From positions 128,001-192,000 of IMG/VR virus record IMGVR_UViG_3300042465_005116: a DNA stretch of 64,000 bases, one strand, 5' to 3'. Source of the stretch: a virus (taxonomy: Duplodnaviria > Caudoviricetes). The position numbers and the translations under genes are program-made. Shown piece by piece: positions 4,240 to 12,135 of this stretch (positions are counted from its first letter, which is position 1; each line of letters begins with the position of its first letter). A model generated the notes under the pieces. The model did not search any database. It had not been told where the DNA came from and saw only the letters and a program-made list of their open reading frames with translations.

Positions 4240-4262
4240 TAATTTATGAGGTTTTTTTATAG

Positions 4263-4336
4263 TGGACCAGATAGGATTCGAACCTATGACCTCAACATTA
4301 TGAGTGTTTTGCTCTAACCAACTGAGCTACAAGTCC
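4263..4336 (-). tRNA. tRNA (CAT), probably Ile2 (lysidine) or elongator Met
   Basis: Cloverleaf, loop CTCATAA, TTCGAAT T-loop, A73. Confidence 0.85.
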
Positions 4337-4385
4337 ATTATCGTTTAATCTAACGATAAAATCTGATATCGTTTCTTTCAACGAT

Positions 4386-4418
4386 AAAAAATAAGCAGGT
4401 GTGGAATCACCTACTTAT
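4386..4418 (-). terminator. intrinsic terminator
   Basis: ATAAGTAGGTG/CACCTGCTTAT hairpin followed by a T-run. Confidence 0.6.
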
Positions 4419-4474
4419 ATAGTGAATGAGAAACATATGAATCTCTTGCGGCTATATCACCAAAGCCCATTAGG

Positions 4475-4588
4475 TGCCGGAGGAAGGATTGGTTACCTAC
4501 ACGATTTCCTTACGGAGTAATCAACTTTTTACAAAGTCACGTCTCAAGGTTTACTACCCAAAGGGAATGCTCTTTCCGCCACTCCGGC
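4475..4588 (-). ncRNA. tRNA-Leu-like RNA lacking an anticodon loop
   Basis: Perfect 7-bp acceptor GCCGGAG/CTCCGGC plus A73; 35-nt D-loop; ACTTT-GTAA-AAAGT anticodon arm; long variable arm; degenerate T-loop. Confidence 0.6.
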
Positions 4589-4604
4589 ATATATCTTTTT
4601 TTTG

Positions 4605-4678
4605 TGGAGGTGATAGGAGTCGAACCTACTACCCTCTGCGTGCAAGGCAGATGCTCTAGCCAAATGAGCTACACCCCC
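4605..4678 (-). tRNA. tRNA-Ala(TGC)
   Basis: Cloverleaf, G3:U70, loop CTTGCAC. Confidence 0.95.
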
Positions 4679-4792
4679 CCAATTAATGTAATGTCTGTAC
4701 GGTTTGTATCTTATCCACACTTTTATTGTGTTTCATTAGTTTCCATTTCATACTTAGCGTCCGTTCCGTCATTCTTTCGAATCATTACATCG

Positions 4793-4878
4793 TACCAGAG
4801 GTGGGAGTCGAACCCACACGAGCGATTTATGCTCAACAGATTTTAAGTCTGTCATGTCTACCATTCCATCACTCCGGC
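4793..4878 (-). tRNA. tRNA-Leu(TAA)
   Basis: Class II cloverleaf, loop CTTAAAA. Confidence 0.95.
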
Positions 4879-4894
4879 ATTTATTCTAATTATC

Positions 4895-5329
4895 CTAATT
4901 TAGTTTACTTAATATTACCCCATTAAGTTTAGTATGATTATCATCTGGATTTATTAATATATCGATTTTATTTTTCCATCGCGGATTCATTAAATCCCTA
5001 ACGTAGTAAACTCCATTGTATTTTCCAGCATTTGACACTCTTACTTTTTCACCAAATTTAAATTTCTTTTTTATATCTCTACTTACTGCAATCACTCTAT
5101 GTTTTTTAGGATTATCCTCATCTAATTCAAAGCCACTCGCCGTTTCTAACGGAGTATCATCAGTTTGTAAAGGGTCAATTGTATATGTAGTCATCGTAAC
5201 AACAAATTTCTTAATTTCCTTAACAACCTCTTCCTTTACCATAGTTTCGATTTTGAATGGATTGGGTGGGGTTACATTTGATGGTAGGATTACCGCAGTA
5301 ATTAATAATATCAATATTAATCTTTTCAT
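4895..5329 (-). CDS. 3D (Asp-Asp-Asp) domain cell-wall protein with N-terminal signal/anchor
   Basis: TTYT...QTDDTPLETASG, IAVSRD, VRD...IDIL pattern. Confidence 0.75.
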   Translation of the reverse strand: MKRLILILLITAVILPSNVTPPNPFKIETMVKEEVVKEIKKFVVTMTTYTIDPLQTDDTPLETASGFELDEDNPKKHRVIAVSRDIKKKFKFGEKVRVSNAGKYNGVYYVRDLMNPRWKNKIDILINPDDNHTKLNGVILSKLN

Positions 5330-5368
5330 AATTTACATTTATGGTTAATAATAACTATTACACTTTTG

Positions 5369-5442
5369 TGATTCGGAAAGGATTCGAACCTTTGGCCTAT
5401 TCATTAGAAGTGAATTGCTCTATCCAACTGAGCTACCGAACC
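5369..5442 (-). tRNA. tRNA-Arg(TCT)
   Basis: Cloverleaf, loop CTTCTAA. Confidence 0.95.
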
Positions 5443-5447
5443 AAATC

Positions 5448-5612
5448 GTTGTTTCAACTTGCAAGTTTACTCTTAACATCTCTTTCTCTACAACGTCTGA
5501 ATTTAATCAACATTTGTAGTCCGAATGTAGCTTCTGGGTAATTACTCCAATGCTTCTATGTAACTCTATATAACTTACTTTGTTACTAAGTGTGTTAAGT
5601 GTATGAAACAAC
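5448..5612 (-). ncRNA. candidate 165-nt structured RNA between tRNA-Asp and tRNA-Arg
   Basis: Terminal 9-bp stem GTTGTTTCA/TGAAACAAC continued by TACACTTAACA/TGTTAAGAGTA; internal hairpins. Confidence 0.45.
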
Positions 5613-5615
5613 TTG

Positions 5616-5689
5616 CGGAATGTATGGGACTCGAACCCATGACCTCATCCGTGACAGGGATGCATTCTAACCAACTGAACTAACACTCC
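5616..5689 (-). tRNA. tRNA-Asp(GTC)
   Basis: Cloverleaf, loop CTGTCAC, G73. Confidence 0.95.
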
Positions 5690-5694
5690 AAATG

Positions 5695-5767
5695 AGCCTC
5701 CTGTCGGATTCGAACCAACGACCCCTTCATTACAAGTGAAGTGCTCTACCAACTGAGCTAAGGAGGC
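5695..5767 (-). tRNA. tRNA-Thr(TGT)
   Basis: Cloverleaf, loop CTTGTAA. Confidence 0.95.
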
Positions 5768-5855
5768 GTTTGATAGGTGACCCTCCTATCGTGAAACTAT
5801 ACATCGTTTCTTTTCTTTATAGAACTCTATTCAGAGAACTGCTGGAACATTTTTG

Positions 5856-5927
5856 TACTCCCAACGGGATTCGAACCCGTATTACTACCGTGAAAGGGTA
5901 GTGACCTAACCATTAGTCGATAGGAGC
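5856..5927 (-). tRNA. tRNA-Glu(TTC)
   Basis: Cloverleaf, loop CTTTCAC. Confidence 0.95.
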
Positions 5928-5946
5928 ATATAATTTTATAACAATG

Positions 5947-5978
5947 TAAAGATACGAAGAATATTCCACATATCCAAA
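5947..5978 (-). promoter_or_regulatory. internal sigma-A-type promoter in the tRNA array
   Basis: TTTG-N20-TATCTTTA. Confidence 0.7.
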
Positions 5979-5979
5979 T

Positions 5980-6441
5980 TTAATTGTGTATTTTTACTAA
6001 GTGGTCAGCAGCATAAGTTGCTATTGGCCCTAATGATTTATATCTTACTGAATACCCCATACCTTCAACCATACCCACTGCTTGTCTAAACACTTCGTTA
6101 GATTTAAAGCGTGGGTCTGGGTTCAAGTCAATATCAATCCACTTAGGTTTTGGAATACCAGCCTCGCGTAATTCTTCGGCAGTTTCAATTGCAAACCAAA
6201 CTTCTTGTAATAATCTAACTGAACGGATTCTTTCTCTTTCACTATTCCATCTTCTATACAATACATGTGCACCCTTTCCTTTTCTATATAAGGCAACTAC
6301 GATTGCATAAATAGTTTTGTTACCTGAATTTTGTGAATCACAACCAATTAAGATTTCTGCATCGGTATTCGTAATCATATATTCTTTGATATATGAAATC
6401 AATTCCACTTCTTCTGCCGTATACAATTTTTTATAAACCAT
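5980..6441 (-). CDS. RNase H-like protein (YkuK/DUF458 family)
   Basis: ILIGCDSQ, LLQEVWFAIETAE, IDIDLN, AADHLVK acidic motifs. Confidence 0.75.
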   Translation of the reverse strand: MVYKKLYTAEEVELISYIKEYMITNTDAEILIGCDSQNSGNKTIYAIVVALYRKGKGAHVLYRRWNSERERIRSVRLLQEVWFAIETAEELREAGIPKPKWIDIDLNPDPRFKSNEVFRQAVGMVEGMGYSVRYKSLGPIATYAADHLVKIHN

Positions 6442-6461
6442 AATTTTACCTTTTTATTTTG

Positions 6462-6536
6462 TACCCATAGTAGGACTCGAACCTACAATTGTGTGGTGTC
6501 TAAAGCCACTGCGTATTCCAATTCCGCCATACGGGT
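6462..6536 (-). tRNA. tRNA-Leu(TAG) with short variable region
   Basis: Leu-type D-arm GGCGGAATTGGAATACGC, loop TTTAGAC, 6-nt variable region. Confidence 0.85.
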
Positions 6537-6545
6537 ATATTTCAG

Positions 6546-6631
6546 CAGAGAGTGAGGGGCTCGAACCCTCGCGGCTTTAACACCCTAACGATTTAGCAAA
6601 CCGTCCCCTTCACCAACTTGGGTAACTCTCT
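6546..6631 (-). tRNA. tRNA-Ser(GCT)
   Basis: Class II cloverleaf, loop TTGCTAA, G73. Confidence 0.95.
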
Positions 6632-6633
6632 AT

Positions 6634-6710
6634 TGGGGTGATTAATGGGATTCGAACCCATACTATCAGTACCACAAACTGACGTGCTAACCATTAACAC
6701 TATAAACACC
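6634..6710 (-). tRNA. tRNA-His(GTG)
   Basis: G-1:C73 pair, loop TTGTGGT, encoded CCA. Confidence 0.95.
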
Positions 6711-6715
6711 ATATG

Positions 6716-6786
6716 TTGCGTGTTTGAGGTTTGAACTCAATTGGTCATCCTTATGAGAGATAACTCTTTTCCACTAAGCCACGCAA
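6716..6786 (-). tRNA. atypical tRNA (CAT), probable elongator Met
   Basis: Normal anticodon arm (CTCATAA) and T-arm, but the acceptor TTGCGTG/CACGCAA lacks the 8-9 linker. Confidence 0.6.
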
Positions 6787-6790
6787 TGTG

Positions 6791-6862
6791 AGGCGGGTAT
6801 TGGATTCGAACCAATGTTAAAGGTTTTGCAGACCTCCTCCTAACCACTCGAGACAACTCGCC
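6791..6862 (-). tRNA. tRNA-Cys(GCA)
   Basis: Cloverleaf, loop CTGCAAA, U73. Confidence 0.95.
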
Positions 6863-6927
6863 ATTATTTGTTGTTCACTTTTTTTGTTTGTTCACCGATA
6901 GTGAACACTCTAAATTTGTGAACATTG

Positions 6928-7000
6928 TAGTTCCATAAGGACTCGAACCCTAACTTTTTCATCCGTAGTGAAAGGTGCTATCCAATTACACCATAGAACT
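6928..7000 (-). tRNA. tRNA-Arg(ACG)
   Basis: Cloverleaf, loop CTACGGA. Confidence 0.95.
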
Positions 7001-7006
7001 ATTTTG

Positions 7007-7077
7007 CACCCCCTGAAAGATTCGAACTTTCATCTGCGGTTTTGGAGACCGATATGCTACCATTGCACCAAAGAGAT
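7007..7077 (-). tRNA. tRNA-Trp(CCA)
   Basis: Cloverleaf, loop CTCCAAA, G73, wobble-rich acceptor. Confidence 0.9.
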
Positions 7078-7139
7078 GTATTATTAGTGTTCCAAAACTC
7101 TATTTTTTTGTTAGATTTGGAACACCAATAACCAAATTG

Positions 7140-7213
7140 TTGGTAATGCGGGATTCGAACCTGCCACCTTCTCGGTATCAGCGAGATGCTCTAACCAAAT
7201 GAGCTAATTACCA
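7140..7213 (-). tRNA. tRNA-Ile(GAT)
   Basis: Cloverleaf, loop CTGATAC. Confidence 0.95.
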
Positions 7214-7219
7214 ATGTTG

Positions 7220-7295
7220 TCGGATAAGCAGGATTCGAACCTGCGTGCTCCACATCCCAAATGTGGCGAGATAGACCTGACTCCTCTACTATCCG
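7220..7295 (-). tRNA. tRNA-Pro(TGG)
   Basis: Cloverleaf, C1:G72, loop TTTGGGA. Confidence 0.95.
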
Positions 7296-7301
7296 TTATT
7301 G

Positions 7302-7375
7302 TGAACCCGAATGGACTCGAACCATTGACTCCCTCATTAAAAGTGAGGTGCTCTAACCAACTGAGCTACGAGTTC
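7302..7375 (-). tRNA. tRNA-Lys(TTT)
   Basis: Cloverleaf, loop CTTTTAA. Confidence 0.95.
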
Positions 7376-7381
7376 ATTCTG

Positions 7382-7454
7382 TGGAGAAAGTTGGTTACGC
7401 TCCAACTCCTGTGGATTTTCAGTCCACTGCTTCTACTAAGTTAGCTTCTTCTCC
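7382..7454 (-). tRNA. tRNA-Phe(GAA) with non-canonical T-loop
   Basis: Loop CTGAAAA; T-arm GTTGG-AGCGTAA-CCAAC. Confidence 0.85.
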
Positions 7455-7461
7455 TATTAAG

Positions 7462-7543
7462 TGCCTGCAGATGGACTCGAACCACCGAACTCCGAAGAGA
7501 GGAGATTTACAGTCTCCAGCAATTGCCACTATGCGATACAGGC
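7462..7543 (-). tRNA. tRNA-Tyr(GTA)
   Basis: Class II cloverleaf, loop CTGTAAA. Confidence 0.95.
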
Positions 7544-7589
7544 TAATTGAGTTGTATTCCAAATTCGAATTTGGAATAATTTCAAATTG

Positions 7590-7663
7590 TAGAAGATATA
7601 GGATTCGAACCTATGACCCTTTGGATGTAAACCAAATGCTCTAACCAACTGAGCTAATCTTCT
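7590..7663 (-). tRNA. tRNA-Val(TAC)
   Basis: Cloverleaf, loop TTTACAT. Confidence 0.95.
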
Positions 7664-7669
7664 ATGTTG

Positions 7670-7741
7670 TTACTCGAATAGGATTCGAACCTATACTACA
7701 TCAGTCAAAGTGAGGTATGCTAACCATTACACCATCGAGCA
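7670..7741 (-). tRNA. tRNA-Gln(TTG)
   Basis: Cloverleaf, U1:A72, loop CTTTGAC. Confidence 0.9.
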
Positions 7742-7748
7742 ATTTATG

Positions 7749-7820
7749 AGCGGATGATAGGAATCGAACCTACGTCTCCTACTTGGAAGGAAGGAGTAAT
7801 AACCATTATACGACATCCGC
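7749..7820 (-). tRNA. tRNA-Gly(TCC)
   Basis: Cloverleaf, loop CTTCCAA, U73. Confidence 0.95.
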
Positions 7821-7832
7821 ATGTCAAAGAAC
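7821..7832 (-). promoter_or_regulatory. boxA-like antitermination element
   Basis: GTTCTTTGACAT in the Asn-Gly spacer; resembles rrn boxA. Confidence 0.5.
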
Positions 7833-7838
7833 CAATTG

Positions 7839-7910
7839 AGGGAAGGGAGAATTTCGAAATCTCGACCTGATGATTAACAGTCATCTGCTCTGCCTCTGAG
7901 CTACCATCCC
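7839..7910 (-). tRNA. tRNA-Asn(GTT)
   Basis: Cloverleaf, loop CTGTTAA. Confidence 0.95.
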
Positions 7911-7917
7911 ATAAACG

Positions 7918-7951
7918 AAAAAACCCTTAACTTTTTTATCAGTTAAGGGTT
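7918..7951 (-). terminator. intrinsic terminator (candidate attenuator) directly upstream of tRNA-Asn
   Basis: 11-bp stem AACCCTTAACT/AGTTAAGGGTT, 8-nt loop, T-run. Confidence 0.75.
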
Positions 7952-7981
7952 CTTAAAATATTGTTATAAAATTTTTACATT

Positions 7982-8104
7982 CTATCCACGTTTTACATCC
8001 CTTAACTTACTTCTATCCTCAATCATATTGAAGACACGATTGCCACCCCAAGCACATTTCTGTGTCGGTAGATAACTAAGCGTATGTATTGTTAAAGTTG
8101 CCAT
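7982..8104 (-). CDS. candidate leader peptide MATLTIHTLSYLPTQKCAWGGNRVFNMIEDRSKLRDVKRG (40 aa)
   Basis: ATG 8104 to TAG 7982; overlaps an anti-terminator-compatible AGTTAAGGG at 7999-8007. Confidence 0.6.
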   Translation of the reverse strand: MATLTIHTLSYLPTQKCAWGGNRVFNMIEDRSKLRDVKRG

Positions 8105-8242
8105 TGTGTATAAGTATATTAAAAACTAATTTATGTTTGTTTTTGTGTTAATAAAATAAAAAAAAGTAACTCATCTTCAATATGCACCATCCATGTCATG
8201 CACTGGTTGACAAAAGCCTCGATAAATTACTTAGTATTTTTT

Positions 8243-9127
8243 AAAAAAATCTGGATGAGAATACTCCATCTTATGAACCAGCTTTATAAGGGTTATTGGT
8301 TACCTTAATTTCCACTACCTTTTGAGTAGTACCGATTCAATGTGGGTAAGTAATGCCTACCAATCATAAAGTTACAACCTACTCTCTTTTTACTCCGCCA
8401 CTTCGAATCTGCCGACCCGATTCACATCTCGCGATGCTAGAAGTTTTTCGAAAGAATCACATTTACCTTGAGAGTATTTGTGGCAGTGAACGACTCACTA
8501 CTATGTACACACCTTTCACTTGCAACTGGTAACCACTTTTTCTTTTATTTTTATTTGATTTTCACCATTGAAAGTAAAAGTTTTGGTTTGTAGAAGAATT
8601 CAAGTAGTGGATTACCACTAGCTCCGTTCCATTTTGAAGAACGGAATACTATACTACTCGATACGATATCCCTATCGTCATATTTTAAGTCTACTTCATA
8701 TCTAAACCTTTGGTAAAGTAAAGATAAGGATAATAACAACACCACTTGTACATCATCATACCTTTCGATTTTAAGTAAACTTTCATATTGAATCACGCAA
8801 TGATATGGAGAGATTAAGTCCGTACTTCTTGCAATAACTCTATGGATTATTCTTATTGGTGTCCCCACCTCAACTGAACTTCTACCTAGCCCAGTCATTA
8901 AACCATTTCACTACGGAGTTACCCTCACTAATCAGGTCTAATGATATTCCACTTGCATACTCAAGCTCCATTCCTTTCGGTCTGAAACCGCAAATTAATT
9001 AACCAACTAATTCACTTTATCCTACTTTCGTAGTTTATTTAACCACCATATGCGGCGGGTATGTACTATGTACCACAAGGATACTATGTACAATATGTTT
9101 CGATAATTTAAAGAACTTTTTTTTGTT
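8243..9127 (-). ncRNA. large ornate non-coding RNA, GOLLD/ROOL-like
   Basis: ~880 nt without a credible ORF, between a promoter (9132-9163) and a hairpin plus T7; many GNRA hairpins; next to tRNAs. Family not verified. Confidence 0.6.
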
Positions 9128-9131
9128 AAGT

Positions 9132-9163
9132 CAAAGATACGAAATCTTTTTCACTTTTCCAAA
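9132..9163 (-). promoter_or_regulatory. sigma-A-type promoter of the large ncRNA
   Basis: TTTG-N20-TATCTTTG. Confidence 0.8.
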
Positions 9164-9237
9164 TTTATTTTAAACTTTTTTTTGTTATGTCTAATACCGA
9201 GTATCTTTCATCGCCTATAAGTTTAGAACTAACTTTG

Positions 9238-9269
9238 TAAAGATACGAAAACATTTTCACATTTCCAAA
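9238..9269 (-). promoter_or_regulatory. sigma-A-type promoter (tandem)
   Basis: TTTG-N20-TATCTTTA. Confidence 0.7.
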
Positions 9270-9341
9270 TCTTTTTTTAATTATTTTTTGTGATATTATA
9301 TATAAGTATATAAAAATATACCAAACGTAAAATAATCATTG

Positions 9342-9413
9342 TAGCGGGTGAAGGATTCGAACCTCCGACCTATAGGTTATGAGCCTACCGAGCTACCACT
9401 GCTCTAACCCGCA
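9342..9413 (-). tRNA. initiator tRNA-fMet(CAT)
   Basis: Unpaired 1:72 (T:T), GAGCAGTGGTAGCTC D-arm, loop CTCATAA. Confidence 0.9.
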
Positions 9414-9434
9414 ATATAATTTTAAAGAACATAA

Positions 9435-9540
9435 AACAAAGTAAGATAATGATATCCGGCGTTATAGTTTACCACTTATGGTTGGACTTCACACATTCGG
9501 TTTTATTAGATGTTGGCTTCAACCACTATCTTATTTTGTT
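9435..9540 (-). ncRNA. candidate 106-nt structured RNA upstream of tRNA-fMet
   Basis: 16 of 17 terminal positions pair; begins just after the promoter at 9545-9576. Confidence 0.45.
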
Positions 9541-9544
9541 AAGT

Positions 9545-9576
9545 CAAAGATACGAAAACATTTTCATATTTCCAAA
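9545..9576 (-). promoter_or_regulatory. sigma-A-type promoter
   Basis: TTTG-N20-TATCTTTG. Confidence 0.8.
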
Positions 9577-9589
9577 TCTTTTTTAATAT

Positions 9590-10036
9590 TTATTTTACTT
9601 TGTAAGATAATCCCAATCCTAATGTAAAATCATCACCAATTAAATTACCAATTCCCCATAAATTTATAACACTACTTGGTCTTAGTGGATTGTACATTAT
9701 AAGAAAATTTGGTTTATTACCATTAAGTGTAGGTTGTAATCCAAACCCAATAATCGCCTTATCCTCTTTTACTTGTCTAAGAACACCAAACTTCATATTA
9801 TCAGATACATTTCCTGTTTTGGTATTAACTCCCGGAGGAATTACTATTCCACCATTTTGTCCACCATATTCATCATACGGAAGTCCCGCATAAAATCCCC
9901 ATCCTTTTTTCATAAATCCACCTGTAATGTATCCATCAGATGGTCCACCCTTGCGGGTAGCGGTTATAAACCACTCTTGCCCTTTTGCATTAATACTTAT
10001 TCCGAGTATCAAAGCCATCACTAATAATTTTTTCAT
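9590..10036 (-). CDS. secreted protein, possible small outer-membrane beta-barrel
   Basis: Signal peptide MKKLLVMALILGISINAKG; Gly/aromatic beta-strand pattern, C-terminal LGLGLSYKVK. Confidence 0.6.
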   Translation of the reverse strand: MKKLLVMALILGISINAKGQEWFITATRKGGPSDGYITGGFMKKGWGFYAGLPYDEYGGQNGGIVIPPGVNTKTGNVSDNMKFGVLRQVKEDKAIIGFGLQPTLNGNKPNFLIMYNPLRPSSVINLWGIGNLIGDDFTLGLGLSYKVK

Positions 10037-10347
10037 AGTGCCTTTATGCTCTTTGTTTTTTCAAGAGAATCCTCTCTTATCCATTTTTGTTTTAACTTAT
10101 CTATTTTTTCAATTTTTAGGATTTTACCTTTAAGTGAGACAATCTCCTTCGTAACCTTTTCGGTACGAACCGTACGTGCAGCGAAATCTTCTTCGGTGAT
10201 TTCAATCAATTCTTTTTTTCGATTAAGAACTGATATTTCTTTTTGGATTTTTTCTATCGCTTTACCATCATTAATCAATGAGGGGTCGATAGAATTACCA
10301 ATACTATTAAAAAATAATAATATGGGTAAGGTAAGTTTTTCTAACAT
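10033..10347 (-). CDS. hypothetical coiled-coil protein with N-terminal hydrophobic segment
   Basis: 104-aa ORF. Confidence 0.55.
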   Translation of the reverse strand: MLEKLTLPILLFFNSIGNSIDPSLINDGKAIEKIQKEISVLNRKKELIEITEEDFAARTVRTEKVTKEIVSLKGKILKIEKIDKLKQKWIREDSLEKTKSIKAL

Positions 10348-10430
10348 TTGTAATCAATAGTTAAAAGTGTAACACATATAAATACATTATTATATATTTT
10401 TAATTAAATATATAACAATAATTTATTAAG

Positions 10431-10806
10431 TGGTGGAGGTGGAGGGAGTCGAACCCTCGTCCAAATACGGATTCAATAAACATCATTCACAAGCTTAGTT
10501 AGTTTTTCTTAACTAACAAAATATTCGGTTGGTTCTTCACCATCGGCAACCGATAAACAATGGGTGATTCGATTTTGGGTTCAATCACTTTTCCACCTTT
10601 GTACACATTCTTTTTAAAGTCCCACGATGTGTGCGGGAGGGATTAGGCTGCTATAGCGTAATCAGCACCTACGAAAGACATTACATCTTCGAAGGTCATT
10701 GTAGATAATTCTACGTCGTTTATTGTTCGATAGGTATTTACGGATTTCCATCTAACCCGGCTTGCAACTTACCAACTCATCGTACCTGTCAAAACCAGGC
10801 ACCCCC
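10431..10806 (-). ncRNA. ssrA: tmRNA
   Basis: 5' GGGGGTG...TTTTGACAG, 3' GGTTCGACTCCCTCCACCTCCACCA, G3:U70, tag ORF ending YAIAA*. Confidence 0.93.
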
Positions 10807-10808
10807 AT

Positions 10809-11495
10809 TTATTTTTTATTCAAAGAACGTTTAATTAAATTCTGAACCTTTTCATTTCTCAAATCAATGTACAACATTATAGTTGCTCTATATTCATTTG
10901 AGTAATTATACACATTATGATAATGATAAGAATTAAAATAATATGCTTTACCTACTTCTAATCTTTTTCTAAATATATTCGTAAACCAATCAGGTCTATG
11001 AAATCGCTTCCACCATTTAAATTCAGCCGAATCTACTACACAATATTCAAACTTTTCTGGTACTATAATTGGAATTTGAATAGTTAGTTCCCATTCTTCT
11101 TGTCCATGTTCCAATACGTGCGAGTGCCAAACTAAAGATTGTTTAGGTGCAATTCGCATCACCCTAGCTCTACTATCTAATTGGTTACCACTAATGTTTG
11201 CACATATCTCATACATATAAGGTATTGTGGATTCCAATTCGGTTTTCTGAAAGTTATATTGCTCAGTACCATCTTCGTACATATCTTTATACAAACTTCC
11301 ATCAGAACTAATCAATGAAATACCACTCCATGCTTTACGATACTTTCTTCGTACTTGCCAAAAGTTAGTTCTATAATCTTTGAATTTGTATTTGTTTTTT
11401 AACAATCCATATTCATCAATTAGTTTATCTAAATCAATATCAATGTCCAATTCTAAAAATGGAATACTTTTTAGTTGTTGTATAAGTTCATTCAT
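10809..11495 (-). CDS. 2OG-Fe(II)/cupin oxygenase, Asp/Asn beta-hydroxylase-like
   Basis: RARVMRIAP...WHSH, HNVYNYSNEYR; likely start MNELIQ (the ORF-track extension overlaps an RNA). Confidence 0.7.
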   Translation of the reverse strand: MNELIQQLKSIPFLELDIDIDLDKLIDEYGLLKNKYKFKDYRTNFWQVRRKYRKAWSGISLISSDGSLYKDMYEDGTEQYNFQKTELESTIPYMYEICANISGNQLDSRARVMRIAPKQSLVWHSHVLEHGQEEWELTIQIPIIVPEKFEYCVVDSAEFKWWKRFHRPDWFTNIFRKRLEVGKAYYFNSYHYHNVYNYSNEYRATIMLYIDLRNEKVQNLIKRSLNKK

Positions 11496-11507
11496 ATTAA
11501 TTAATTG

Positions 11508-11676
11508 CTGTAAGAGGAGGATTCGAACCATCCACGATGCGATTCAGTAAGTAACACTTTCTCCGGCCGGATGGTGGTCTACCCCATATTACTTACCTAT
11601 TTCGTTCTCACCACCCCCGAGACAGGAGGGCTTGTCTACCCGGTCATACTGAGACAACCTTTTCCAACACCTTACA
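11508..11676 (-). ncRNA. 169-nt tRNA-like RNA with GTC anticodon and expanded D-loop and variable arm
   Basis: Acceptor TGTAAGG/TCTTACA plus G73, D-stem TTG/CAA, CCCTC-CTGTCTC-GGGGG arm, ~80-nt variable arm, GGTTCGAATCC T-loop. Confidence 0.65.
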
Positions 11677-11772
11677 ATATATGAACTAACTCACTGGAAA
11701 CCTTATAATTGAATTCAATCAACTTATGGGTTAAGTACTCCGTTTATGTTAGTTCCTCGTACTCCAAGTTTG

Positions 11773-11857
11773 CAGAGAGTTAGGGATTCGAACCCCAGAT
11801 ACCTTTCAGTATGCCAGTTTTCAAGACTGGTGCCATCAACCACTCGGCCAACTCTCT
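11773..11857 (-). tRNA. tRNA-Ser(TGA)
   Basis: Class II cloverleaf, loop CTTGAAA, G73. Confidence 0.95.
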
Positions 11858-11865
11858 GTTTAATA

Positions 11866-12135
11866 TTATTGAATATGAGTTTCTTCGTTTCGAAGTGCTC
11901 TCACATCTAATGTAATATTTGATTGTCTTCTTCTTGCTTCTTCAGCTTCTTTATACCAACGAATCCAAGTTAAGGAAACATCAATTGGTGCAAGAACCCA
12001 TGCCATTACCACTACCATAATAGTATCCAATTCAGGAGAACCACCGATGGGGTCATTGCTGTATCTTTTATCTAAATTTTTAAATAATTGATAGAAACAA
12101 TAAAGAACACAAATAATGTAATACGTTAAAAACAT
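11866..12135 (-). CDS. hypothetical membrane protein
   Basis: Two hydrophobic segments. Confidence 0.55.
   Translation of the reverse strand: MFLTYYIICVLYCFYQLFKNLDKRYSNDPIGGSPELDTIMVVVMAWVLAPIDVSLTWIRWYKEAEEARRRQSNITLDVRALRNEETHIQ

Follow-up and report, generated by a model that had tools for sequence, protein, structure and literature searches.

A phage RNA gene from an apparently uncatalogued family of giant-armed tRNA-like RNAs common to Bacteroidota and their large phages

A giant-armed tRNA-like RNA gene in a large lake-water phage

The stretch of DNA analysed here (the window, 64,000 nucleotides (nt)) is part of a large uncultured phage from lake water. Its minus strand carries at 11508-11676 an RNA gene of 169 nt that is shaped like a transfer RNA (tRNA), with a full cloverleaf and a structured variable arm of 80 nt. 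This RNA is the phage copy of an apparently uncatalogued family of giant-armed tRNA-like RNAs that is common to Bacteroidota and their large phages. About 200 distinct relatives were collected from viral contigs, metagenomes and Bacteroidota genomes; the family was absent from Rfam 15, and no description of it turned up among the open-access papers searched. Because the relatives conserve the unit and covary, the structure was judged to be far beyond chance, and the aligned copies indicate that the family is under strong purifying selection and is not a decayed tRNA.

The original prediction, which was made from the letters of the window, had described a 7-bp acceptor stem, G73, a CUGUCUC anticodon loop, a D loop of 30 nt, a variable arm of about 80 nt and the T loop, and all of these were present on the minus strand (Table 1). 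The acceptor stem (UGUAAGG/UCUUACA) has 7 bp including one G.U pair and is followed by G73. In the T arm the UUCGAAU loop was as described, but the stem is not a clean 5-bp helix, since GGAGG/CCUCC contains one bulged U. The variable arm consists of a base helix (GGUG/CAUC), a bulge (AGAA), a 3-bp helix (CGA/UCG), an internal loop (AAUAG/UGAA), an 8-bp helix (GUAAGUAA/UUACUUAC) and two terminal hairpins, and it also contains the stem UCC-GGCC-GGA that had been noticed at the outset.

ARAGORN made no call at 11508-11676, and Rfam 15 gave no RF00005 match there even at E-values up to 10. The single-sequence folding energy of the window copy was at the level of shuffled sequences (z = 0.08) and is uninformative. 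Since the folding energy is no better than that of shuffles, the case for the structure was built on the relatives.

Conservation and covariation among the relatives

The two closest phage relatives (L023 and L024) were reached via the upstream radical S-adenosylmethionine gene. They keep the exact unit at 83-87% identity between diverged flanks, and in both of them it sits between tRNA-Ser(UGA) and the transfer-messenger RNA (tmRNA), with no gene of the P0001 type (a protein gene described below) at that place. Two pattern scans of viral contigs yielded 28 further distinct copies, and the covariation set comprised 29 distinct aligned sequences, from which the cloverleaf and the arm helices were recovered by RNAalifold. 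In the curated structure 96.1% of the pair cells of these 29 copies were standard and 26 of the 39 pairs change on both sides, so the check by homolog covariation named in the original prediction came out in favour of conserved pairing with many compensatory changes. The covariation score was 0.462, compared with at most 0.124 for controls with slid partners, and none of 500 shuffles reached it. The T stem also covaries across the wider family (GAAGG/CCUUC, GAUGG/CCAUC, GCACG/CGUGC). The arms of the family have common parts, namely a 4-bp base helix, a bulge of 4-5 nt, a 3-bp helix, a conserved asymmetric internal loop, an 8-bp helix and the GACCAC hairpin.

A covariance model of the family (R1) found one copy per phage at 125-170 bits. 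Overall, the relatives scored 65-170 bits, and ordinary tRNAs reached at most 41 bits in the phage set and at most 47 bits in all sets. The window copy was matched end to end at 162 bits and has all the features that define the family, that is, U1-A72, G73, an NNGUCYC loop and a structured arm with the GACCAC hairpin. A BLAST search of the region against GenBank phages found nothing, the exact 28-mer of the T arm and acceptor end was absent from the viral contigs searched, and none of the 22 viral loci reached via the downstream gene P0001 carries the element.

Two candidate motifs were tried and dropped. A pseudoknot between GGUGGU and ACCACC has an A.C mismatch in L023, and covariation is seen for the helix that competes with it, GGUG/CAUC; a k-turn resembling box C/D (UGAUGA...CUGA) was present in some copies only.

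Table 1 Parts of the RNA gene and the tRNA gene upstream of it (window coordinates)
Feature	Position	Strand	Remarks
Whole RNA gene	11508..11676	-	U1 = 11676, discriminator G73 = 11508; borders match the end of the conserved block in L023/L024
Acceptor stem, 5' strand UGUAAGG	11670..11676	-	U1 pairs with A72; 29/29 copies paired (100%), 6/7 pairs covary
U8 G9 and D-stem 5' strand UUG	11665..11669	-	U8 G9 in 100/100 phage and metagenome copies; D stem covaries (UUG/CAA, GUG/CAC, GCG/CGC)
D loop, 30 nt, elbow GG within GGGUAGA	11635..11664	-	tRNA-Leu-type loop, GAAAUUGGYAGAC
Hairpin inserted in D loop, GGUUGU-CUCAGU-AUGACC	11642..11659	-	In relatives the sequence varies and the pairing is kept
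D-stem 3' strand CAA and G26	11631..11634	-	D-stem covariation
Anticodon arm CCCUC-CUGUCUC-GGGGG	11614..11630	-	GUC 11621-11623, U37 11620, C38 11619; stem covaries
Variable arm, 80 nt (RNA positions 64-143)	11534..11613	-	Three helices covary: 3/4, 3/3 and 8/8 pairs change on both sides
Arm hairpin 1, GGGGUAGACCACC, carries GACCAC with a bulged A	11573..11585	-	GACCAC invariant in alignment A2; outer pair covaries (G-C, U-A, A-U)
Arm tip, perfect 10-nt palindrome UCCGGCCGGA	11562..11571	-	Palindrome pattern at the same place in relatives
T arm GGA(U)GG - UUCGAAU - CCUCC, bulged U at 11530	11516..11533	-	T stem covaries family-wide
Acceptor stem, 3' strand UCUUACA, and discriminator G73	11508..11515	-	G73 in 99/100 phage and metagenome copies, 100/100 cellular copies
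3' trailer CAA, C74 alone encoded	11505..11507	-	As in the 24 ordinary tRNA genes of the phage
tRNA-Ser(UGA)	11772..11857	-	95 nt upstream of the RNA gene, same strand; likely co-transcribed

Spread of the family

The metagenomes were scanned with a pattern in which the T arm was left free, giving at least 120 matches, at least 85 of them confirmed by R1. A scan of genomes, one per species, also gave at least 120 matches, at least 103 of which were confirmed by R1, and the genome matches listed were nearly all from Bacteroidota (Pedobacter, Chitinophaga, Cytophagales, Cyclobacteriaceae, Saprospiraceae, Aquirufa, Fulvivirga). In an unbiased R1 search, about 15 of 151 Bacteroidota genomes, drawn evenly, proved to carry the family. 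The copies range from 108 to 212 nt in length, and cells often hold a short and a long copy in tandem. The family has hundreds of copies, which reach from Bacteroidota genomes and large phages to lake, marine and soil metagenomes, although it is overlooked by standard tRNA finders and by Rfam 15, and cultivable carriers exist in Pedobacter, Chitinophaga and Algoriphagus.

Conserved nucleotides and the anticodon loop

Conservation was counted in 100 distinct phage and metagenome copies and in 100 cellular copies. U1-A72 was present in 97 of the former and in all of the latter (197 of 200 in total), and G73 is still more constant (Table 1). Among the phage and metagenome copies G2-C71 was found in 97 and C74 in 98; the full CCA end is encoded in 14 of them and in 20 of the cellular copies. 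The nucleotides of the tertiary contacts (U8, A14, G18G19 and, in the T loop, U54, U55, C56 and A58) show little or no variation in alignments A2 and A3. Position 10 can be U, G or A, and G10 is not conserved.

The anticodon loop reads NNGUCUC, in which positions 32-33 are CU, UU, UC, CC, CG or UA. Position 33 is thus U, C, G or A, and a nucleotide other than U (C, G or A) stands there in 12-20% of the copies. Position 37 is U, rarely C, in all copies, and C38 is nearly invariant. The family does not have the loop of the decoding type, in which U33 is combined with a purine at 37. GUCUC was kept by every new copy from the one scan in which it was not fixed. In the unbiased search of 151 genomes GUCCC occurred twice, and in one tandem pair GUC was replaced by UUC; this cellular pair (L329, G140:C1:3852069-3852399) has copies of 109-110 nt with a CUUUCUC loop, that is, the anticodon UUC (Glu), and retains U37 and C38. 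The original prediction that this is a genuine tRNA-like RNA with GUC, C38, G73 and a pyrimidine at 37 was thus borne out across the relatives. Its attribution of Asp identity elements was correct for GUC, C38 and G73 but incomplete, as U1-A72 takes the place of G1-C72 and G10 is not conserved.

A normal tRNA-Asp(GUC) was found at 5615-5689 of the window, as had been predicted. Such a canonical tRNA-Asp was also present in 14 of the 15 phage loci that hold at least 15 tRNAs and in all five carrier genomes tested.

Genomic context, maturation and RNA evidence

The RNA gene belongs to a region of the minus strand (4262-11857) that holds 24 tRNA genes, the tmRNA and a GOLLD RNA. Of the 43 copies with a tRNA within 300 nt upstream, 32 have tRNA-Ser there, and in 17 of these 32 exactly 4 nt separate it from the element. 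The 4-nt spacing behind tRNA-Ser suggests a dimeric precursor. Each tRNA gene of the array encodes the discriminator and C74 alone, followed by an A-rich trailer, and almost all of them have U at -1, with leaders 'aat', 'tat' or 'cat'. The ends of the element are those of the array tRNAs, namely an 'aaU' leader (U at -1) and an N73-C trailer. Judged from these sequences, the uniform ends of the array would imply uniform processing by RNase P and addition of CCA by the host. In four complete genomes of related phages no enzyme of the aspartyl-tRNA synthetase (AspRS) family, no CCA-adding enzyme and no Lrp/AsnC regulator were found. As the related phages are without CCA-adding and AspRS-family enzymes, host enzymes must act on the RNA. 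Scans for promoter and terminator consensus sequences around the gene gave nothing above shuffles, with a scan that does not model Bacteroidota promoters. At the cellular loci a divergent gene for a regulator of the Lrp/AsnC family lies about 156 nt upstream in 58 of 76 cases.

Six metatranscriptome runs from lakes and other freshwater contain part of 10400-11900, and four of them were aligned to the window. Five contigs of run X15 together cover 11507-11650 at 0-1 mismatches, from the T arm through the complete variable arm and the anticodon arm into the D loop; they retain the variable arm and show no joint. Splicing, which would have spoken against the original prediction, did not show up in these contigs. 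The tmRNA (10431-10806) is also covered by contigs in the same RNA runs, at high depth. No contig covered the coding region of P0001 in the four RNA runs, and uncovered stretches, among them 11651-11676, say little alone. In run X18 contigs of relatives were found with a summed depth of 3666 over the conserved core, which is a poor measure of level. The contigs are moderate evidence for a stable RNA that retains its arm, and they count against splicing and against carry-over of DNA.

Phage-specific features and the predicted dimer

Three features are concentrated in the phage copies, and the window copy carries all of them. Directly behind GACCAC, a perfect palindrome of 8 nt or more was found in 22 of 27 viral, 46 of 66 metagenome and 10 of 50 cellular copies, and in 11-12% of shuffles. 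The T stem has a 1-nt bulge in 25 of 27 viral, 11 of 73 metagenome and 2 of 100 cellular copies, and the D loop contains a hairpin in 16 of 27 viral, 12 of 73 metagenome and 0 of 99 cellular copies. There are more than 20 different palindromes at the arm tip, with four central bases that are self-complementary (TGCA, GGCC, CCGG). Since a hairpin loop needs no self-complementary centre, selection for a duplex between molecules is suggested. For the window copy, with its UCCGGCCGGA tip, the prediction favoured the dimer over two hairpin monomers by 18.9 kcal/mol. We infer that the phage copies may dimerise through the palindromic tip, which would make RNA dimerisation a viral adaptation.

Proposed role and rival explanations

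The reading that we favour is that of an RNA matured like a tRNA which engages AspRS, is a poor decoder, binds a partner through its arm and is dimeric in phages; taken as a whole, we consider it evenly balanced between right and wrong. The RNA would be transcribed with the tRNA array, often directly behind tRNA-Ser, released by RNase P and 3' trimming, and completed with CCA by a host enzyme. The dimeric AspRS of the host would then bind, and possibly charge, the RNA via G34-U35-C36, C38, G2-C71 and G73, since AspRS binding is the simplest explanation for the invariance of these nucleotides. The RNA is expected to read Asp codons poorly because of the pyrimidine at 37, the variable position 33 and, in phages, the T-stem bulge and the D-loop hairpin, and a tRNA-Asp is present for decoding. 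A non-translational role, which had been put forward in the original prediction, is likely; the pyrimidine at 37, the variable position 33 and the coexisting tRNA-Asp point that way. The conserved arm, with its internal loop and GACCAC hairpin, may be a handle for a putative partner, and the self-complementary tip would join two molecules of the phage copies. Since the cellular genes stand head to head with a regulator of the amino-acid-responsive Lrp/AsnC type and the phage takes the RNA alone, the phage RNA would probably supply or imitate, during infection, a host RNA tied to amino-acid or tRNA-charging status.

A more far-reaching form of this proposal, which we regard as rather improbable, is that the family constitutes a new class of tRNA-shaped RNA which AspRS charges, or at least binds, but which does not enter the ribosome, with the giant arm docking a partner, and that large phages of Bacteroidota use a self-dimerising version to take over a host pathway coupling amino-acid or tRNA-charging status to physiology. 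Decoding tRNAs almost universally have U33 and a purine at 37; the family departs from both rules, and its arm is as large as the tRNA body. If the RNA is charged without decoding, it would be a new natural case of the tRNA machinery working outside translation; if it decodes, it would exceed all known natural elongator tRNAs in size and become a candidate for a natural missense tRNA.

Several points weigh against the favoured reading. U1-A72 and the unconserved G10 depart from tRNA-Asp, so charging by AspRS is uncertain. The tandem pair with UUC resembles ordinary anticodon evolution and fits decoding. Three of the four collection scans had fixed GTCTC, and the invariance of GUCUC rests on the one scan without it and on the model search of 151 genomes. 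The RNA evidence consists of assembled contigs, which are blind to ends, strand and level, and dimerisation is a matter of prediction and sequence pattern. In addition, tRNAs engineered to carry aptamers on their variable arm remain active in translation in E. coli, and a long arm alone is thus no bar to decoding (PMC7590224).

A working minor tRNA that reads GAC/GAU, being either an odd isoacceptor charged with Asp or a natural missense tRNA charged with, for example, Ser, is an explanation that we consider unlikely but still deserving of some weight. It would account for the complete cloverleaf with all the tertiary-contact nucleotides, for the invariant anticodon, which one lineage switched to the sense anticodon UUC, and for the location in tRNA arrays; the 7/5 branch of the cellular copies suits EF-Tu, and besides the arm-tagged tRNAs just mentioned there are natural allo-tRNAs with a long arm, G73 and often GUC (PMC5389517). 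However, the nucleotide at 37 is always a pyrimidine and 12-20% of the copies have G, C or A at position 33, a canonical tRNA-Asp coexists everywhere examined except in one of the 15 large phage loci, the phage copies add the T-stem bulge and the D-loop hairpin, and the conserved internal motifs of the arm are not required by decoding. As for charging with Ser, a bulge near the arm base blocked seryl-tRNA synthetase (SerRS) in engineered allo-tRNAs (PMC7590224), and by analogy the 4-bp arm base and the 4-5-nt bulge of the family would argue against charging by SerRS. The phage copy might instead be a decoy or sponge that mimics tRNA-Asp or the host giant-armed RNA and soaks up a host nuclease that targets tRNAs, or an enzyme that binds them, with the dimer raising avidity. 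Phage tRNAs are known to counter tRNA-cleaving defences (PMC10264068, PMC11464382, PMC11555353). The palindromic tip, T bulge and D hairpin, being restricted to phages, would take the RNA further from a translating tRNA, and the high summed contig depth of relatives fits as well, although it is a poor measure of level. However, the family is also cellular, with its own adjoining regulator, so its core function is not anti-defence; moreover, we know of no nuclease specific for the GUC loop in Bacteroidota hosts. A decoy seems quite unlikely.

It was also considered that the RNA serves as a carrier for Asp during its amidation to Asn by GatCAB off the ribosome and combines U1-A72 as the amidotransferase mark with the anticodon marks for AspRS. 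In bacteria the acceptor ends of tRNA-Asn and tRNA-Gln are marked by U1-A72 and G73, and amidotransferases rely on U1-A72 (PMC9976931), which the family keeps almost without exception; the Lrp/AsnC-family regulator next to the cellular copies would also fit. Against this, a phage has no evident need for such a carrier, and we regard the idea as very improbable. An interrupted gene from which the inserts are removed to give a normal tRNA of 76 nt is less probable still, even though the core without the D-loop hairpin and the arm is indeed of tRNA size. The inserts covary, contain invariant motifs and form conserved structured domains, the RNA contigs carry the arm uninterrupted and without a joint, and to our knowledge no bacterial splicing system acts at such positions. 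That the element is a decayed tRNA pseudogene or a chance cloverleaf, as might be supposed from its being missed by tRNA finders and from its folding energy, is refuted by the covariation, with about 200 distinct copies under structural selection in phages and cells, and its probability is practically nil.

Neighbouring genes and other RNAs

Between the RNA gene and the tmRNA the window phage has the gene P0001 (10809-11497, minus strand), which encodes a protein like an Asp/Asn beta-hydroxylase and is present at this place in the window phage only, being absent there in the two closest relatives. Its homologs elsewhere lie beside other tRNAs or GTP cyclohydrolase I, and the gene moves among phages. 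The longest open reading frame of P0001 begins with an ATG at 11531, inside the T arm, and alignments of homologs suggest that the real start is at 11497. The several marine-type viral contigs L012-L017 have, downstream of P0001 homologs, an unusually long tRNA-Ile(UAU) of 95 nt called by ARAGORN (e.g. L013:5544-5638). Just upstream of tRNA-Ser lies P0003 (11866-12135, minus strand), a predicted membrane protein of 89 amino acids with no Pfam match. In 28 of the 95 loci that bear the element, the equivalent position on the same strand codes for a protein of about 94 amino acids, also with no Pfam match (representative L024:6044-6328).

The tmRNA (10431-10806, minus strand) encodes a tag of 24 residues, DVELSTMTFEDVMSFVGADYAIAA, and those of relatives share the core ...VELSTMTFED...GADYAVAA. 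A link between GUC and a tmRNA resume codon GAC was considered and dropped, as the tags of relatives start with A, G or D. The GOLLD RNA (8252-8661, minus strand), a full-length match to Rfam RF02032 at 264 bits, is flanked by the tRNA array and tRNA-Met.

A second oversized tRNA-like element lies at 4475-4588 on the minus strand beside tRNA-Leu(UAA), with the acceptor stem GCCGGAG/CUCCGGC, a long D loop containing GGGUAG and no normal anticodon loop. R1 gave no match to it at E-values up to 1, which places it in a different family. In the tRNA arrays of related phages there are weak R1 matches (15-23 bits) of 99-148 nt (L054:7047-7194, L052:6268-6415, L032:5948-6077, L044:4670-4768 and L037:1016-1123); they have no ARAGORN call and may be other oversized tRNA-like RNAs. 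Beside tRNA-Gly(UCC), ARAGORN also called tRNA-like genes with a two-base 'anticodon' (tc) at L029:3081-3153, L032:8120-8190 and L037:287-359.

Comparison with known systems

Oversized RNAs in a phage tRNA cluster have a precedent in the stable RNAs of species 1 and 2 of phage T4 (rnaC, 139 nt, and rnaD, 119 nt). rnaC ends in a T arm of the tRNA type, GGGUUCGAAUCCC, but has neither the GUC loop nor a comparable arm, and R1 gave no match to the T4 cluster (L056) at E-values up to 1, so homology to rnaC and rnaD was not detected. By analogy, the T4 RNAs are best regarded as a functional analogue and not as a detectable homologue. With tRNA-Asn and tRNA-Gln of the transamidosome pathway the family shares the U1-A72 and G73 acceptor end, whereas their anticodons are GUU and UUG and that of the family is GUC.

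Allo-tRNAs, reported from Clostridia, Proteobacteria and Acidobacteria, have a branch of 8/4 or 9/3, a long D stem closed by a tetraloop and arms of normal size; irregular tRNAs are reported to occur in phage tRNA clusters, and allo-tRNAs have been proposed to act as suppressors or regulators (Mukai et al. 2017, PMC5389517). The family shares with them a long variable arm, G73, bacterial occurrence and a non-Ser anticodon, which in allo-tRNAs is often GUC. However, it has a 7/5 branch in all copies, a D arm of the tRNA-Leu type and conserved motifs in an arm that is 3-6 times longer, and the chimeric allo-tRNA proposed in the original prediction was therefore given up.

The body of the RNA is closest to class II tRNA-Leu (RF00005), with which it shares U8 G9, a 3-bp D stem, the GAAUUGGYAGAC D loop, the 7/5 acceptor/T branch, one nucleotide before the variable arm and 'GU' after it. 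tRNA-Leu genes are also the next-best matches of R1 outside the family (35.7 bits in the window and about 45 bits in genomes). They differ in having A73 instead of G73, a Leu anticodon instead of GUC with a pyrimidine at 37, and a variable arm of about 15 nt compared with 45-130 nt; the family has U1-A72 and falls below the RF00005 threshold.

The anticodon loop and part of the acceptor end, on the other hand, are those of tRNA-Asp. The bacterial Asp identity set comprises G34 U35 C36, C38, G73 and G2-C71 plus G1-C72 and G10, and bacterial tRNA-Asp keeps G1-C72 strictly, a pair that helps to seat the 3' end in AspRS (PMC9976931). The family shares G34 U35 C36, C38, G2-C71 and G73, but it has U1-A72 in place of G1-C72, a free position 10, a class II body and the giant arm. 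Its loop, CUGUCUC, differs from the CUGUCAC loop of the phage's own tRNA-Asp solely at position 37.

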